From: Sphingomonadaceae bacterium
GTDB lineage: Bacteria > Chloroflexota > UBA6077
Direction of reading: 5' to 3'
Assembly (NCBI GenBank): GCA_050261575.1
Contig: JBLNDL010000063.1
Location: forward strand, 1 to 54,762
Length of the DNA: 54,762 nucleotides
In this document: positions 16,910-34,196 of the stretch, one piece after another
Numbering within the stretch: the first letter of the stretch is position 1
Layout of the letters: each line of letters begins with the position of its first letter
The notes under the pieces: generated by a model
What the model was told of the DNA's origin: nothing
Databases searched by the model: none
What the model saw: the letters and a program-made list of their open reading frames with translations, nothing else
Translations under genes and position numbers: made by a program

Positions 16910-17599
16910 TCACGCGGCCGCCGGCCGCTGCCGCCTACCAGCGATGGTCAGCAGGTTCTCCACGTAGACCACGCCGGCGGTGTACCAGGCGTCCCTTTCG
17001 GCGGCCTGCCGCTCCTCCACGTTGGTGACCTGGCCCTGGAGCCGGACGGTGCCCGCCACCGACTTCACGGTGATCTGAGTGGGATCGGCGATGCGGGCAT
17101 CGCTGTCCAGGGCTGCGCGCACGTCCTGCTCGATCTCCGCATCGGGGCGCCGCCTGTCTGCGGAGACGGTGAGCTCGTTGGAGACGTCCACGACTCCATC
17201 CGTCTGCCAGGCGTCCTCCTCCGCGGCCCGCCGTTCCGCCTCGCTGGAGACGGTCCCCGAGAGGCGGACGATCCCTTCGGCGACGTTGACCACCACGCTC
17301 CGGTCGTCAACCCGGGGATCACGTTCCAGGGCGGATGCCACGTCGGCGGCGACCTGTTCCGCCGGCCGCAGGATGTCGGGCTTCACCTGGAGTTCGTTTC
17401 TCACCTCGGTGACCCCTTTGATCCGCCAGGCATCCTCGGCTGCCACCAGCCTGTCGACGTGGCGCGCTACCGTTCCGGAGAGGGTGACTATCCCTCGCTG
17501 TACCCGAACCGAGATGCCCTCGGGCCGGAGACGGGAGTCGTGATTCAGGACTTCGAGGACCTCGCTGGCTATCCTCTGGTCGCTCTGGCTCTCGGGCAT
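16910..17599 (-). CDS. triple BON-domain protein
   Basis: Three repeats of GIVTLSGTV...AAEEDAW..GV..V.NEL; GGAGG upstream of ATG 17599. Confidence 0.92.
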   Translation of the reverse strand: MPESQSDQRIASEVLEVLNHDSRLRPEGISVRVQRGIVTLSGTVARHVDRLVAAEDAWRIKGVTEVRNELQVKPDILRPAEQVAADVASALERDPRVDDRSVVVNVAEGIVRLSGTVSSEAERRAAEEDAWQTDGVVDVSNELTVSADRRRPDAEIEQDVRAALDSDARIADPTQITVKSVAGTVRLQGQVTNVEERQAAERDAWYTAGVVYVENLLTIAGRRQRPAAA

Positions 17600-17698
17600 T
17601 GGTGAACGGCCCTCCGCAATAGAGCTCTCAGCCTTCAGCGATCCGCTTCCGACTCCTGCCCCGAGGCTGTCTGCGGATCGCAGCGCTGTAGCCACTCG

Positions 17699-17714
17699 AG
17701 CAACGAGTATGCCA
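17699..17714 (-). promoter_or_regulatory. sigma54 (-24/-12) promoter of the BON gene
   Basis: Minus strand TGGCATACTCGTTGCT. Confidence 0.8.
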
Positions 17715-17942
17715 CCGGCGAACGGCGGGGAACGATCCAACGATCGGCCCGTTCCCAGCCGTCGAACGGCTGGCCGTCCACTCGCCCGAGTGGGGTGGCG
17801 GGGAACGCAGCCATCGGCCTTTCCGTGGGTGTGCTTGGCGGGCGAGCGGATGCCCCCTCGCAAGCTGTCTGAATGGGAGACGATTCGGTCGCCGGACCAC
17901 ATCAACGTTGATGCATCGACTGTGCCAATGGGCAAACCGGGT

Positions 17943-17958
17943 GGGCATCGATCGTGCG
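17943..17958 (+). promoter_or_regulatory. possible distal sigma54 promoter of the rRNA operon
   Basis: GGGCATCGATCGTGCG, GG-N10-GC. Confidence 0.45.
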
Positions 17959-18018
17959 GTGCCTGCCCGGTCCGTGAGAAGGGGCACTGGCCCCGGGGGC
18001 ATCCCGAGGCGGAACCCC

Positions 18019-18034
18019 TGGCACGGTCCCTGCT
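18019..18034 (+). promoter_or_regulatory. sigma54 promoter P1 of the rRNA operon
   Basis: TGGCACGGTCCCTGCT. Confidence 0.75.
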
Positions 18035-18111
18035 TAAGTCAGAGGTCTTTCCGGCCGATGGGTCGGAGGGGCGGTTCCTCCAGAGAAGGGGGGACGGGGC
18101 AGGGGTTCCGG

Positions 18112-18127
18112 TGGCACCGATCGTGCA
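18112..18127 (+). promoter_or_regulatory. sigma54 promoter P2 of the rRNA operon
   Basis: TGGCACCGATCGTGCA; predicted +1 near 18138, just ahead of the leader hairpin and boxA-like GAACCTTAACAG. Confidence 0.75.
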
Positions 18128-18220
18128 CTTGACATAACCGGTCAGGGTCGCGAGGGGCGACCGGCGCGAACCTTAACAGCCGAACAGTGGTGAGAGGGTG
18201 TGGCGCCTCGAAGAGAGGCT

Positions 18221-19823
18221 TTTCCGGTGGGTTTGATCCTGGCCCAGGACGAACGCTGGCGGCGTGCCTAGTACATGCGAGTCGTACGGGCCGGCGAAAG
18301 CTGGCCAGTGGCAGACGCTCGAGTAACACGTGGGCAACCTACCCCCAAGCGGCGGACATTCGGCCGAAAGGCCGGTAAATCCGCCATGTGGTCGCCTGGC
18401 ACTAGGCCTGGCGGCTAAAGCCGATGAGGCGTTTGGGGAGGGACCCGCGGCCCATCAGGTCGTTGGTGGGGTAACGGCCCACCAAGCCGATGACGGGTAG
18501 CTGGTCTGAGAGGACGGCCAGCCTTGCGGGGACTGAGACAGGGCCCCGACTCCTACGGGAGGCAGCAGTATGGGATCTTGCGCAATGGGCGAAAGCCTGA
18601 CGCAGCGACGCCGCGTGGAGGAAGAAGGCCTTCGGGTCGTAAACTCCTTTTGCCGGGGAAGAAGGCCCGATACCAGCGCTCGAGAGCGGGCCATTAGCGT
18701 CCGAAGCTGATGGCCGGAGCGATGGTTCACGTCGGGCTTGACGGTACCCGGCGAATAAGCCCCGACCAACTACGTGTCAGCAGTCGCGGCAATACGTGGG
18801 GGGCGAGCGTTGTCCGGATTCATTGGGCGTAAAGAGCGCGTAGGTGGTGGCACCCGTCGGCCGTGAAAGCCCTCGGCTCAACCGAGGAAGGGCGGCCGAT
18901 ACCGTGTCGCTTGGAGGACGGCAGGGGGAGGCGGAACTCCCGGTGGAGCGGTAATATGCGTTGATATCGGGAAGAACCTCAGTGGCGAAGGCGGCCTCCT
19001 AGACCGTTCCTGACGCTGAGGCGCGAAGGCGTGGGGAGCGAGCGGGATTAGGAAACCCCGTTAGTCCACGCAGTAAACGATGGGCACTAGGTCCGGGGGG
19101 CATTGACCCCTTCCGGGTCGAAGCTAACGCGTTAAGTGCCCCGCCTGGGGACATACGGCCGCAAGGCTGAAACCCAAAGGAATTGACGAAGACCCACACA
19201 AGCGGCGGAGCACGTGGTTTAATCCGAATCGGACCGTAGAACCTTACCAGGGCTGGATGTCGGGAGTAGGAACCGGAAACGGGGACGACCCGTAAAGGCG
19301 GGGACCGGCACAGGGCTGAATGGCTGTTGTCAGTTCGTGTCGTGAGACGTTGGGCTCAGCCCCACAACGAGCGAAACCCTCGCTGCTAGTTAGCCGTCGT
19401 CAAACGGCTTCTCTAGCGGGACCGCCGGGTAACCGGGAGGAAGGAGGGGATGACTTCCAGTCGGCATGGCCTTGATGCCCTGGGCCTCACACGTGCTACA
19501 ATGGCCGGTACAAAGGGCTGCCAAGCCGCGAGGCGGAGCTAAACCCAAAAAGCCGGCCTCAGTTGGGATTGCAGGCTGCAACTCGCCTGCATGAACGTGG
19601 AGCCGCTAGTAACCGCCGGTCAGCGAAACGGCGGTGAATGTGTCCCTGGGTCTCGCACACCTAGTCCGCCGTGTCCTGGGTGCCTTCCCGCGCCGAAGCC
19701 CCGCTTGCCCCCACTGTCTGAGTGGACCATGGGGACGGCAGGGCGAGGGCGGGACAGGTGACCGAGGACACGGGCGTAGCAAGGTGGTCGTACCGGAAGG
19801 TGCGGCGGAAATCTGCCTTTTCC
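18221..19823 (+). rRNA. rrs: 16S rRNA, highly divergent variant
   Basis: Colinear 16S landmarks (TTTGATCCTGGC, ACTCCTACGGGAGGCAGCAG, 530 loop, AAAGGAATTGAC, h45 GGAA loop) with many substitutions at invariant sites; ends approximate. Confidence 0.95.
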
Positions 19824-19988
19824 GGCAGAACGGCCGGGTCGATCCCCGGCGTTCCGTCCGGACAGTCTCGAAGCCTCTGATGCAGTCTCTCCAAGAGGCG
19901 CTCCACCCTCTCACCATTGTCGGCCGAGGGGTCGCATGTCCAGCACCTTTACAACCAGATAGCTTTCATTCCGCTCACGAGTCAGCAG

Positions 19989-23017
<3,029 letters not shown>

Positions 23018-23087
23018 TGGTGCTCGGCGGCAATGGAAGCTATCTGGTTGGAAAGGTGACGGTACAGCGGCCCTTACACTCTTTGCT

Positions 23088-23126
23088 CAGGGGCGCCACC
23101 TGCGTTAGAGGCTGGTGGCGCCCCTG
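23088..23126 (+). terminator. 13-bp stem hairpin after 23S, no U-tract
   Basis: CAGGGGCGCCACC / GGTGGCGCCCCTG. Confidence 0.5.
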
Positions 23127-23154
23127 CGTCTGTCGAGCGGCGGAGGAGAGCAGA

Positions 23155-23445
23155 ATGGCCATGCGACTCTACGTCGGGAACCTCCCCGACGACGTGAAGG
23201 ACGAGGACCTCATTGCCCTGTTCGGGCAGGCGGGCACCGTGCAGTCGGCTGAGGTGGTCCGCCAGACCACCGGACAGTCCGCCGGATACGGTTTCGTCGA
23301 GATGGCATCCGACACCGAGGCCGAGGATGCCATCCGGGCCTTCAACGGCTACATGTTGGACGGCAACGAGATCGAGGTGAGGGTCGCGACTCCGGAGGGG
23401 ATCGGCTATCCCCCCAGCTACGGGGGGCTCACCTCGGAGGGGTGA
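23155..23445 (+). CDS. RRM (RNP-1/RNP-2) RNA-binding protein
   Basis: RNP2 LYVGNL, RNP1 AGYGFVEM, AIRAFNG; GGAGGAG RBS. Confidence 0.95.
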   Translation: MAMRLYVGNLPDDVKDEDLIALFGQAGTVQSAEVVRQTTGQSAGYGFVEMASDTEAEDAIRAFNGYMLDGNEIEVRVATPEGIGYPPSYGGLTSEG

Positions 23446-23591
23446 GCCGAGGCCGTAGCGGCCGACACGGCGAAGGCGATACGCACCGTCGCGCCGATCG
23501 ATTCGACCGTCATGCTACGCTCAGCATCTCCTCGACGCGGAGATCCTTCGCTGTCTCTCGAGGATGGCCAGTGGCGATCTTGCAGGCCACG

Positions 23592-24761
23592 TTACCGGTA
23601 CTGCATCGCGAGTTCCGCGTAGACCTCCGCGGCGGCTGCAACCTCCTCGACGTCTACCCACTCGTCGGATGTGTGAGCCTGGGAGATGTCGCCGGGGCCC
23701 AACACGACGCACGGAATCCCTCCGGCCACCAGTTCGCTCGCGTCGGTGCCGTATGCCGCGCCGGCCGGCGCGGCCCTGCCGAGGATATGCCTGCACGCCT
23801 CCAGGGCGGCTTGGACGATTGGGGCGTCCACGGGGGTATCCAGACCCCGATACTCCTTCAAGATGGCGGCGACTTCGGCACGTATCCAGGGCCGGTCTTG
23901 GCGCAGGCCTGCGACGAATGCACGCAGCCTGTCCGCCGCCCGGGCGGGCTCCTCCTCGGGCAGGGTCCGCATGTCCACGTCGATGCTGCACTCGGACGGC
24001 ACCACGTTGATCTGTACCCCCCCGGAGATGCAGCTAACGCTGAGGGTGGCCGGCCCGCACAAGGGATGCCGACGCTCGGCCAGTTGGGCTTCCACTCGTT
24101 CCCGCAGCGCCTGGATCAGATCCACCATCTGGTAGATGGCGTTGTCGCCCAGTTCCGGGCGGGAGCTGTGGGCGCTCCGCCCGCGAGTGACGAGCCTAGC
24201 TCTCAGCCCGCCCTTGTGGGCGACCACAGGCTGCAATCCAGTCGGCTCGAACACCACGGCCGCGTCTGCCCTGCCTCCTCCCTCGACGAACGCCCGCGAT
24301 CCTGTGAACCCTATTTCCTCGTCCATGGCTCCGAGGAAGAGCAGGTCGGCCGGCAGCCGATCTCGGTGGGGTGCAAGCAGCTCCAGTGCGTGGAGGAAGG
24401 CCGCCGCGGAGCCCTTGACGTCGCAGGCGCCACGGCCGCGCAGGCGGCTGCCCTCCAGTCGAGGCGTTAGTCCGTCCGGCATGTTGGCAACCGTCACGGT
24501 GTCCATATGGCACTCGAACAGCAGCCTCCGGCCCGGATTGCCCGTCCTCAGATGGGCCAGGAGATTCGGCCTGCCTGGCATCACCTCATCCATCGATGTC
24601 TCGAAGCCGAGCCTCTGGAGGTGGCCTGCCAGATGCCTGGCCAGCTCGACCTCGCCCGGCCCACCACCCTCGACCGCTGGATTCACGCTGTTGATGGCGA
24701 CTAGCTCGCTCAGCAGTTGGACCACTCGCCGGCGGTTGGCGCGCCCCTTGAAGCCGATCAT
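23592..24761 (-). CDS. M20 family metallopeptidase/deacylase, ArgE/DapE-like
   Basis: HMDTV, GRGACDVKG, DEE, EPT, AHSSRPELG, AHTSDEWV. Confidence 0.93.
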   Translation of the reverse strand: MIGFKGRANRRRVVQLLSELVAINSVNPAVEGGGPGEVELARHLAGHLQRLGFETSMDEVMPGRPNLLAHLRTGNPGRRLLFECHMDTVTVANMPDGLTPRLEGSRLRGRGACDVKGSAAAFLHALELLAPHRDRLPADLLFLGAMDEEIGFTGSRAFVEGGGRADAAVVFEPTGLQPVVAHKGGLRARLVTRGRSAHSSRPELGDNAIYQMVDLIQALRERVEAQLAERRHPLCGPATLSVSCISGGVQINVVPSECSIDVDMRTLPEEEPARAADRLRAFVAGLRQDRPWIRAEVAAILKEYRGLDTPVDAPIVQAALEACRHILGRAAPAGAAYGTDASELVAGGIPCVVLGPGDISQAHTSDEWVDVEEVAAAAEVYAELAMQYR

Positions 24762-25179: not shown

Positions 25180-25635
25180 CTACGCCGCCTTCTCGGCGGG
25201 ACCTTCTCGGTGGGCTTGCTGCTCGGTGCGGCTGCGCACCTCTTCCTGGATGTCCAGCAGCTCGTCGACGTCGACGGGAACGGTGCGCCGGACCGTCTCG
25301 CTCGGGTGGCTGAGCCGCTTCCAGTGGGTTTCGTTTCGCTTGTCGGAAAGGAGGTGCTGGACTTGCCTCTCCAGCTCGGCCGCCACATTGACGAGGCCGC
25401 TCTCCAGGGTCTCCGCGTTCGCGCTGGCGAAGAACCGGTCGCCGGGGAGTTCCAGCACCACTCTGACGTTGTAGAACAGGTCGGTCACCGGTAGGCGGAT
25501 CAGCCGGACAGCGGCCATAACCGAATCGGACGGGTAGTCCTGGAGAAGGTGGTTCAGCAGCCCCAGCTTCTCGCGCACCAGCGCCTGCACCGCATCGGTG
25601 AGGTCCAGATCCTTGACGTGGATTTGAAAGTACAT
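25180..25635 (-). CDS. HPF/RaiA (ribosome hibernation factor) family protein with C-terminal extension
   Basis: IHVKDLDLTDAVQALVREKL, LELPG..FFASANAETLESGL...LERQV. Confidence 0.85.
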   Translation of the reverse strand: MYFQIHVKDLDLTDAVQALVREKLGLLNHLLQDYPSDSVMAAVRLIRLPVTDLFYNVRVVLELPGDRFFASANAETLESGLVNVAAELERQVQHLLSDKRNETHWKRLSHPSETVRRTVPVDVDELLDIQEEVRSRTEQQAHREGPAEKAA

Positions 25636-31465: not shown

Positions 31466-31957
31466 ATGTCAATCAGCAGGTACGATCCCTTGACCCGACT
31501 GATGACTCTGCGGGACGCCGTCGATAGGATATTCGATGAGGCGTTTGGCCGAACCGGCATCGCGCGGATGGCAACTGGCACACTCCCTATCGACATGTTC
31601 GAGCGGGACGACGAGTTGATCATTCAGGCCGCCGTCCCCGGCGCTCGTCCGGAGGACGTGGACATCAGCGTCACCAGCGATACCCTGACAATCAAGGCCA
31701 CCGTCCACACCGAGGCCGAGAAGGAGGAATCCAAGAACTGGAACTGGTACTTCCACGAGTTGGATCACGGCCAGGTCACCCGCACCGTTTCCCTCCCGTT
31801 CCAGGTTTCCTCCGATCAGGCCGACGCGCGATTCGAGAACGGCATGCTCCACTTGAGGCTGCCCAAGTCGAGGGAGGCGATGCCTCGTCGGATAAAGGTT
31901 CAGATGGGTTCGGGGCAGGCTCAGCAGATCGGGGTGACCCAACAGGGTGGCGACTAG
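31466..31957 (+). CDS. Hsp20/alpha-crystallin small heat-shock protein
   Basis: LPIDMFE, PGARPEDVDISV, ARFENGMLHLRLPK. Confidence 0.95.
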   Translation: MSISRYDPLTRLMTLRDAVDRIFDEAFGRTGIARMATGTLPIDMFERDDELIIQAAVPGARPEDVDISVTSDTLTIKATVHTEAEKEESKNWNWYFHELDHGQVTRTVSLPFQVSSDQADARFENGMLHLRLPKSREAMPRRIKVQMGSGQAQQIGVTQQGGD

Positions 31958-33746: not shown

Positions 33747-34196
33747 ATGAAAAGGGGCTCGACTTCGGTGCACTTCTACAAGCGGATACTGATTCCCTTC
33801 GATGGCTCGGAGGGCGCCACAAAGGCGCTGCGGCGGGCGCTCCAAGTTGCCAAGGATCAGGCTGCCGCTGTCACGGTCTTCTACGTCGACGAGCACCTGC
33901 CTCGCTATGCGAAGGGGGTGGGAGAGATCCGGGAAAGCCAGGAACTGAGGGAGGCGGAGGCGGCCGAGCTTGAATCTCGGGCTCGCGCCGTTGCTGCTGA
34001 GTATGGTGTGAGGATCAAGTTCGAGACCGTCGCTGGACACGCCGCCCTTGCGATCCTGAGCCGTGCGCGGGAGGGGGGCTTCGATCTCATCGCCATCGGC
34101 CGTAGTGGGCGCTCGGGTCTGTGGGGGATGCTGCTAGGAAGCACCACGGCCAGGGTGGTGGATCAGGCCGCCTGCGACGTGCTGGTGGCGCGCTGA
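33747..34196 (+). CDS. universal stress protein
   Basis: YKRILIPFDGSE, DLIAIGRSGRSG, LLGSTTARVV; start may be GTG 33768. Confidence 0.95.
   Translation: MKRGSTSVHFYKRILIPFDGSEGATKALRRALQVAKDQAAAVTVFYVDEHLPRYAKGVGEIRESQELREAEAAELESRARAVAAEYGVRIKFETVAGHAALAILSRAREGGFDLIAIGRSGRSGLWGMLLGSTTARVVDQAACDVLVAR

Follow-up and report, generated by a model that had tools for sequence, protein, structure and literature searches.

Can a bacterial ribosome work when the nucleotides that hold the transfer RNA (tRNA) in its P and E sites have been exchanged for others? The question is raised by a hyper-divergent 16S ribosomal RNA (rRNA) gene at positions 18221-19820 of contig JBLNDL010000063.1 (GenBank assembly GCA_050261575.1, a genome of the Chloroflexota lineage UBA6077). 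The contig was analysed over a stretch of 54,762 nucleotides (nt), called the window below. A preliminary description of this DNA had reported the P- and E-site contacts of the 30S subunit as replaced, which implies a working 30S subunit that does without them. The substitutions themselves stand, but the implication is unsupported: the gene sits in a second, hyper-divergent rRNA operon beside a canonical one. The favoured reading, held with moderate confidence, is that the operon encodes an expressed and conserved paralogous rRNA pair, yielding ribosome-like subunits that do not translate canonically.

The window corresponds to contig C63 of a metagenome-assembled genome (MAG), here G000, whose 103 contigs sum to 3.72 Mb; its completeness is rated at 100% and its contamination at 4.76%. 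The fellow members of its family (f1) are G001 to G004, and G000 together with G002, G003 and G004 spans three genera. L052 and L053 are public metagenome contigs with a 16S of the divergent type. Features lie on the forward strand unless stated otherwise, and base numbers are those of Escherichia coli.

Rewritten contact sites in both rRNA genes

The 16S gene matches the Rfam model RF00177 from end to end (Infernal, model positions 1-1533) with 1218.9 bits, the gathering score being 50; five full-length canonical relatives of the same order reach 1449-1543 bits. Its identity is 66.8% to E. coli and 73-76% to the canonical relatives of the order. The individual bases were placed by two separate alignments, one made in MAFFT with the 16S of an annotated E. 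coli record and canonical relatives, the other with Infernal against the RF00177 covariance model. G005, in which a run of N interrupts the 16S, and the partial 16S genes of G030 and G013 were left out of the statistics; L052, having no 3' end, entered neither the tree nor the counts in helix 44 (h44). Formal alignment had been named beforehand as a possible refutation of the described changes; neither of the two independent alignments restored the canonical residues.

At the P site, both alignments agree on every change. G926A (19189) is placed identically by the two, lies next to G927A in h28 (19189-19190), and occurs in all four divergent-type sequences (G000, G004, L053 and L052). G966U (19229) falls inside a rewritten h31 loop (h31 19223-19238, loop 19227-19234), together with U965A, A968G, A969G, C970A and G971C; at position 966, G000 and G004 have U, L053 and L052 have C, and none of the four has G. 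C1400A (19663) is flanked by A1398C, C1399U and C1402U. The 790 loop (19044-19059) contains one added G (19051/19052) and U793A (19054), with A790 kept (19050), and G004 has the same change. G926A, C1400A and the 790-loop change are found in all related divergent-type sequences that cover them; L052 and L053 were retrieved by a 790-loop pattern search of metagenome contigs, so their sharing of this motif is circular. Retention of G1338 and A1339 (19600-19601) was likewise correctly described. At its P site, then, the gene shows G926, G966 and C1400 exchanged and a 790 loop one base longer, around a conserved A790, G1338 and A1339.

The claim that the P/E-site contacts are replaced is hence borne out for the P site (G926, G966, C1400, C1402 and the geometry of the 790 loop) and, for the E site, only in small part. 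G693A (18953) and A695U (18955), in the 690 loop (18953-18955), are confirmed by both alignments, but they are two bases only and are restricted to G000: G004, L053 and L052 keep G693 and A695. The E-site bases 788, 789, 794, 795 and 1382 are unchanged in the window.

These P- and E-site changes are also a minor share of a rewiring that extends to the A-site decoding bases, the anti-Shine-Dalgarno (anti-SD) sequence and, in the 50S subunit, the P loop, the A loop and the peptidyl-transferase centre. Among columns invariant in E. coli and five canonical Chloroflexota, the window 16S differs at 141 of 982, against 7-26 of 989-1008 for the canonical relatives counted leave-one-out; the number is far beyond chance. 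The changes are concentrated where the 16S touches tRNA and messenger RNA (mRNA): 14 of 32 invariant positions which we take to be such contacts are changed, against 127 of the 950 remaining ones (odds ratio 5.0, p=4e-5 in Fisher's test). On the same assumed list, 7 of 10 positions are changed in the A site, 5 of 15 in the P site and 2 of 7 in the E site.

In the 3' strand of h28 and the top of h44 (19647-19672), the substitutions are C1384U, C1388U, A1398C, C1399U, C1400A, C1402U, U1406C, A1408G and C1409U; C1384U and C1388U compensate G933A and G929A, and all states of this segment are identical in G004 and L053. The 3' strand of h44 (19770-19779) has G1491A, A1492C, A1493G, U1495G and A1500G. 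By the pairing that these bases allow, the A-site internal loop of h44 can close into a nearly continuous helix. Further changes are C1054A, A1196C, the pair U1406C/U1495G and, in the 530 loop (18774-18791), C518U, U531C and C525U, the last compensated by G506A in the h18 pseudoknot. Of the decoding bases expected in a translating 16S (G530, A1492, A1493, A1408), G000 keeps G530, which is A in the other three divergent-type sequences; A1492C, A1493G and A1408G are present in all three that cover those positions. Both alignments show that the 3' tail (19805-19820) is without the CCUCC anti-SD core. U1498 and the KsgA site A1518/A1519 are kept.

Two further observations concern the 16S transcript. 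The CUGCC of the tail can pair with a GGCAG a few bases downstream (19805-19850), which would give the precursor a small hairpin. In the h17 region, G000 alone has an insertion of 76 nt (18663-18738); G004 and the canonical relatives are without it, and contigs of other organisms in RNA runs skip it.

The 23S rRNA gene (19989-23019) is equally aberrant. It scores 2185.1 bits with RF02541, compared to 2628 for the canonical 23S of G021, and differs at 399 of the 2026 columns where E. coli and canonical G021 agree. Rfam and tRNA searches of the locus found no tRNA in the 168-nt 16S-23S spacer and no 5S gene after the 23S. Its E. coli numbering is that of the annotated E. coli gene shifted by 2, a shift checked against known motif positions. 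The P loop reads UUU instead of G2251-G2253 (22371-22373), with the same state in G002, G003 and G004. In the peptidyl-transferase ring (22697-22727), U2584C, U2585A and A2602G are found, and positions 2583-2586 vary among the four divergent copies. G2447A, U2449C, C2452A, A2453G, U2500C, A2059G and, in helix 69 (H69), A1913C are additional, and the A loop is one base shorter. The core of a translating 23S is thus altered by the UUU P loop, U2585A, A2602G and the short A loop, with A2451 and G2553 kept, as are A2503-U2506 and the core of the sarcin-ricin loop (SRL, 22774-22788). The canonical 23S used for comparison (G021, C1:2313116-2316843) has its own peculiarity: it is 3728 nt long, with an H69 insertion of ~800 nt after ~1917 that has the look of an intron containing an open reading frame.

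Canonical rRNA genes beside the divergent operon

The simplest alternative, and the implicit reading of the preliminary description, is that this is the sole rRNA operon, so that the working ribosome truly has these P- and E-site bases. The window does hold the only full 16S and 23S genes of a MAG rated 100% complete, and the only rRNA genes of G004 are also of the divergent type. Contigs C74 and C18 of G000, on the other hand, start with an identical 121 nt, the 3' end of another 23S that is 78-81% identical to that of the window, and then diverge from each other. Contig starts that agree and then part in this way typically betray a repeat that a short-read assembly has omitted. The two 5S genes of G000 are both outside the window: one lies behind the 23S end of C74 (C74:277-393), the other at C56:51885-52001. 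They differ at only two positions, which supports a single organism. The C56 gene is an orphan, located in the middle of a 58.6-kb contig directly after a tRNA, and its two differences from the C74 gene look compensatory; it might serve the divergent operon, which has no 5S of its own.

Missing tRNAs point the same way. ARAGORN detected 51 tRNAs and a transfer-messenger RNA (tmRNA) in the assembly of G000, but no tRNA-Ile(GAU), tRNA-Ala(UGC) or tRNA-Tyr. The 16S-23S spacer holds tRNA-Ile and tRNA-Ala in the canonical operons of G003 and G021 and tRNA-Ile in that of G027; the loci of G006 and G025 have none. The ARAGORN list of G000 also includes a predicted tRNA-Gly with anticodon ACC and a tRNA-SeC.

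The mRNAs of the cell are those of a Shine-Dalgarno (SD) user. Among 2725 starts in G000, predicted by a crude codon-usage gene caller of our own, GGAGG occurs at -20..-2 of 22.3%. The corresponding figures are 3.4% at -58..-40 and 4.9% in front of internal ATG/GTG codons. The 5' end of the motif is most frequent at -15..-6, where two 5-nt bins hold 567 occurrences against 11-72 in each other bin. With GGAGG enriched ~6-fold at normal spacing, a CCUCC-bearing 16S must also be in use; the CCUCC-less tail of the window 16S does not match the SD usage of these genes. The complement of that tail is not enriched before the starts (3.9% vs 3.3%). GGCAG and AGGCAG, considered as orthogonal SD sequences for the new tail, were rejected: they do not exceed the generic AGG effect, and most AGGCAG are a GGAGG followed by CAG. 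Genomes whose 16S copies all lack the anti-SD have been described (Lim, Furuta & Kobayashi 2012, PMC3457768), and they share the CCUCC-less tail with the window; they are reported to have also lost SD-like sequences, unlike G000.

The ribosomal proteins fit as well. S12, S13 and S9 are single copy in a Pfam search of G000, and tblastn gave no second match there for 17 further ribosomal protein genes with Pfam labels in the main cluster. The three inspected proteins look canonical: the PNSA loop of S12 is intact and the C-terminus of S9 is K-R, features that go with canonical decoding and canonical contacts at the P site. A second ribosomal protein set or special tRNAs dedicated to the divergent operon were considered and discarded, none being present among S12, S13, S9, the 17 cluster proteins and the ARAGORN list, a check that left other proteins and translation factors outside. 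The proteins, tRNAs and mRNA signals of the cell remain those of a canonical ribosome.

In G003, both operon types are found within one MAG. Its contig C86 contains a canonical 16S (1543 bits, CCUCC present), tRNA-Ile, tRNA-Ala and the start of a 23S. Contig C311 contains the 3' third of a divergent-type 23S, 93% identical to that of the window, with the UUU P loop, U2585A, A2602G and the short A loop, adjoining the same neighbour genes as the window 23S; a third contig, C197, begins with a 124-nt fragment of the second 23S type. Coexistence with a canonical operon is hence direct within the MAG in G003 and indirect in G000, where the second 23S end, the 5S genes elsewhere and the absence of spacer tRNAs all speak against a sole housekeeping operon. 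As all genomes are MAGs, the expression "same genome", also for the co-occurrence in G003, rests on binning. Taken together, a sole operon is very improbable, and the canonical operon of G000 is most simply regarded as present but unassembled. One repeat terminus recurs at about a dozen contig ends of G000, so the assembly may be broken up by a multi-copy mobile element.

Constraint, distribution and transcription

Is the divergent operon anything other than a functionless, drifting duplicate? A decaying pseudo-operon would agree with the loss of universal functional bases in every centre of both subunits, with ~11% of consensus helix pairs being unpaired, and with the absence of the operon from the syntenic site of G001. 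The rate of change is not that of neutral decay. Between G000 and G004, the 16S and the 23S are each 89.3% identical, and the four-fold degenerate sites of six syntenic flanking genes are only 54.8% identical (n=904; 39% is expected from composition). Codon positions 1+2 of these genes are 88.0% identical, and the non-coding segment 17600-18088 does not align at all. Both rRNA genes are full length in G000 and G004, with full-length Rfam matches and no large deletions, and the 23S of G002 is whole up to the contig end.

The secondary structure is retained. From a consensus structure built from canonical sequences only (447 pairs), G000 keeps 396 of 443 pairs. Set against the canonical Chloroflexota pair, changes that preserve pairing are two-sided in 46 cases and one-sided in 49, and 46 pairs are broken. 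Where both sides of a pair differ between G000 and canonical G003, 50 of 62 pair in both, compared to 3-7 of 26-33 in slid controls; these double changes are thus largely compensatory. Covariation is also seen within the divergent clade: h28 927/1390 is A-U in G000 and G004 and G-C in L053, and 507/524 of the h18 pseudoknot is either C-G or A-U, next to a shared change of 506/525 from G-C to A-U.

The same holds for the processing stems. The 5' arm of the 16S stem (18184-18244) pairs with 19860-19920, an inverted repeat (I1) of 61 nt and 70% complementarity, and that of the 23S stem (19929-19970) with 23032-23073 (I2, 42 nt, 79% complementary). The complementarity of both is conserved in G004.

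In a maximum-likelihood tree, the three divergent 16S sequences form one clade (100/100) on a stem of 0.37 substitutions/site, with tips of 0.048-0.069. A long stem with short tips points to rapid change that later gave way to constraint. The clade branches off among the canonical 16S sequences of the order, at a point that the tree does not fix exactly. With this tree, the compensatory changes, the completeness of the genes and, above all, the rate comparison, which largely refutes it, the pseudogene explanation is improbable.

A search of 39 genomes of the order with 22330-23019 shows the divergent 23S type, at 90-93% identity, in G000, G002, G003 and G004; 19 of the others have only matches of 72-82% identity, and 16 have none. 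The operon is therefore retained in three genera of one family. In G004, synteny with the window is conserved from the FTCD gene to the end of the 23S. G001 has the flanking genes, but its syntenic site consists of 9.6 kb of other DNA with no rRNA. This replacement DNA (contig C33 of G001) includes a group II intron domain (RF00029, 47.9 bits, L064 4953-5023).

Outside these MAGs, L052 and L053 carry the divergent 16S type at 87.6% and 88.9% identity, L053 on a 97-kb contig. A 16-mer from h44 gave 34 matches in species genomes, only one of them in an rRNA gene, and this was the contig of G004 itself; a 22-mer search of metagenome contigs gave no match. Parts of the window are held by 16 sequencing runs from 12 studies, mostly soil metagenomes, and four of these hold at least half of the sampled words. 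One might naturally suspect foreign DNA, a chimera or an error of assembly or binning, as MAGs are error-prone and G000 is rated as 4.76% contaminated. The suspicion is scarcely credible here: four genomes of the family share the operon in a conserved gene order, it is also present on two independent metagenome contigs, the sequencing runs come from many studies, and the variable regions resemble those of the family relatives, in line with the attachment of the clade inside the order.

Pieces of the divergent operon occur in RNA libraries too. In four soil metatranscriptome runs, four contigs (151, 151, 317 and 277 nt; depths 2-9; three studies) are identical to the divergent 23S, and the longest of them runs across the UUU P loop. 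Over 19122-19350, a 229-nt RNA contig is 93% identical with a depth of 378; it has no listed difference at 19189-19190 and an h31 loop of the L053 type. The flanks 17600-18202 and 23027-23600 have zero RNA cover, and the contigs together with the bare flanks support transcription of the operon. Depth in these runs is dominated by the conserved rRNA of other organisms and cannot rank expression, and uncovered bins are no evidence of absence. Upstream of the operon, no site emerged from a scan for sigma-70 promoters, and terminator-like matches were not above those in shuffled sequences. Matching RNA contigs are a further point against a pseudogene.

Neighbouring genes and possible role of the proposed particles

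Upstream of the operon lie a BON-domain gene (16910-17599) and a dCTP deaminase gene. An RRM_1 RNA-binding protein gene (23155-23445; Pfam PF00076, E 6.5e-22) starts 135 nt after the 23S and has no match in the G002 locus; an M20 peptidase gene is also found downstream. On the reverse strand, 25180-25635 encodes a divergent HPF/RaiA-like (S30AE) paralogue (PF02482, 32.2 bits, cut-off 23.7, E 1.8e-7), next to which G000 possesses a canonical HPF copy on C50 (81 bits). Homologues of the paralogue occur in 4 of 31 related genomes, all of family f1, and in none of 26 from other families. It adjoins the divergent 23S in G002 and G003; G001 has the paralogue too, its syntenic site being free of the operon. 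All 25 relatives of the protein in databases measure ~150 amino acids (aa), and the sole source that names an organism says Chloroflexota. In one cluster of these relatives, the longest contig equals that of L053 in length and is presumably identical with it. Stress- or dormancy-type genes cluster around the operon: BON, RRM and HPF/RaiA-like genes and, further downstream at 31502-31957 and 33768-34196, Hsp20 and universal stress protein (Usp) genes.

HPF and RaiA sit in the mRNA/tRNA channel of the 30S subunit, and the nucleotides that they bind are those changed in the window 16S. The neighbouring gene matches this family, but unlike its established members it is a weak-scoring, family-restricted paralogue of ~150 aa (32 vs 81 bits). 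A tie between this protein and the divergent 30S is only a lead, drawn from synteny.

The course of events behind these observations may be pictured as follows. A second 16S-23S operon, without spacer tRNAs, 5S or anti-SD, is inherited vertically in one soil Chloroflexota family beside the canonical operons. After the duplication, a burst of change would have rewritten nucleotides that touch tRNA and mRNA: in the 30S A site A1492C, A1493G, A1408G and C1054A; in the P site G926A, G966U/C, C1400A, C1402U and the 790 loop; and in the 50S the P loop from GGG to UUU, the A loop shortened by one base, U2585A, A2602G and A1913C of H69. This burst spared the general fold as well as the processing stems and the sarcin-ricin loop; since then the operon has been under purifying selection, and it is transcribed. 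The two RNAs would presumably assemble with the single ribosomal protein set of the cell into ribosome-like subunits, and such particles would not perform SD-led, tRNA-CCA-dependent translation monitored by A-minor contacts. The P- and E-site changes would then be part of the loss or repurposing of the whole tRNA path. Of this picture, the coexistence of the two operon types, the constraint, the preserved structure and the occurrence in RNA libraries are shown, and the particles with their lack of canonical translation are inferred.

The main rival explanation is a specialised, translation-competent second ribosome, in which the divergent 30S and 50S form a pair that translates some mRNAs, for example leaderless or stress-related ones, with tRNA held and codons read in an unconventional manner. 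Purifying selection and the joint maintenance of both subunit RNAs would fit such a ribosome, as would bridge B2a, changed on both of its sides (h44 1408-1410/1494-1495 and A1913C of H69), the processing stems and RNA-library contigs that support a mature transcript, and the nearby stress genes (BON, HPF-like, Hsp20, Usp). Against it, A1492C, A1493G and A1408G remove the A-minor monitors, and C74/C75 of tRNA have no pairing partner in a UUU P loop. U2585 and A2602, changed here, have been reported as essential in E. coli. The four divergent 23S copies disagree with one another at 2447-2452, at 2583-2586 and in the A loop, and three of the four 16S sequences have A in place of G530; the very sites on which catalysis and decoding depend thus seem to be under little constraint. 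A dedicated ribosome would also be served by none of the features looked for: second copies of the tested ribosomal proteins, an unusual tRNA set, or an enriched mRNA motif complementary to the new 3' tail. Such a ribosome is unlikely, though still to be taken seriously. As far as its bases can be read, the window sequence would argue against canonical translation by a variant ribosome.

Several points weigh against the reading of the operon as a source of non-canonical, ribosome-like subunits. Purifying selection implies a function and does not say which. The SRL, A2451, A2503-U2506, G2553, A790, G1338/A1339, U1498 and A1518/A1519, all kept, are what a working ribosome needs, and most of them (all but U1498) also count in favour of the specialised ribosome. 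The variation just mentioned at 2447-2452, 2583-2586, the A loop and G530 speaks against full constraint. Invariant columns still differ by 6.7% between G000 and G004 (other columns by 17.7%), as a pseudogene would have it; 46 consensus pairs are broken in G000 compared to 28 in E. coli; and of the pairs that vary within the clade, 25 of 59 are kept in both sequences, compared to 51 of 63 between canonical G003 and G021. RNA libraries can include contaminating DNA, and the exactly matching pieces are shallow. Finally, no full canonical 16S was obtained from G000, and with its level of contamination, binning could in principle mix organisms.

It is an even call whether the proposed subunits form a pseudo-ribosome, with the fold, the processing signals and the factor-binding sarcin-ricin loop preserved, that purifying selection maintains for a task other than standard translation. 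This task might be regulation, storage or dormancy together with the HPF-like protein; more radically, the particle might be a ribosome that selects and holds substrates without A1492/A1493 and without a CCA-binding P loop. A role in stress or dormancy with the neighbouring family-specific HPF-like protein is speculative.

Divergent rRNA operons within one genome are known from Haloarcula marismortui (rrnB), Thermobispora bispora and Plasmodium (A/S-type). As in these heterogeneous ribosomes, more than one operon type is present per genome, with transcription and no homogenisation by gene conversion. Unlike them, which differ by ~5-12% and keep the universal decoding and catalytic bases, the window copy differs by 24-27% from the canonical 16S of its order and lacks A1492, A1493, G2251-2253, U2585, A2602 and the anti-SD. 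Engineered orthogonal ribosomes, with an altered anti-SD or tethered subunits, similarly place a second rRNA that is blind to normal SD sequences beside wild-type ribosomes; in contrast to the window operon, they have intact decoding and catalytic cores and a matching orthogonal SD, and no matching motif is enriched in G000. Natural change at 2447-2453 and 2500-2504, once thought invariant, is shared with archaeal variants of the peptidyl-transferase centre (10.1101/2024.11.12.623245). Those variants are reported to belong to a working ribosome with up to six changes that preserve the active-site geometry, whereas the window operon is an extra copy that also loses the P loop, U2585, A2602 and the decoding bases. 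No description of an operon like that of the window was found in the literature, a search that did not cover subscription-only papers and supplementary files.

The locus holds a warning for work with MAGs. The canonical operon often remains unassembled, and a unique divergent copy assembles well and can be mistaken for the 16S of the organism; a paralogue mistaken in this way would distort phylogeny, primer design and claims of aberrant ribosomes. To our knowledge, A1492/A1493, G2251/G2252, U2585 and A2602 are textbook invariants of all ribosomes. If an rRNA pair is conserved, processed and transcribed without them, it would be a natural experiment on a ribosomal scaffold without a tRNA path, or with a rebuilt one. 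For this family of soil Chloroflexota, the locus makes it testable whether bacteria have non-translating ribosome-like particles linked to dormancy.

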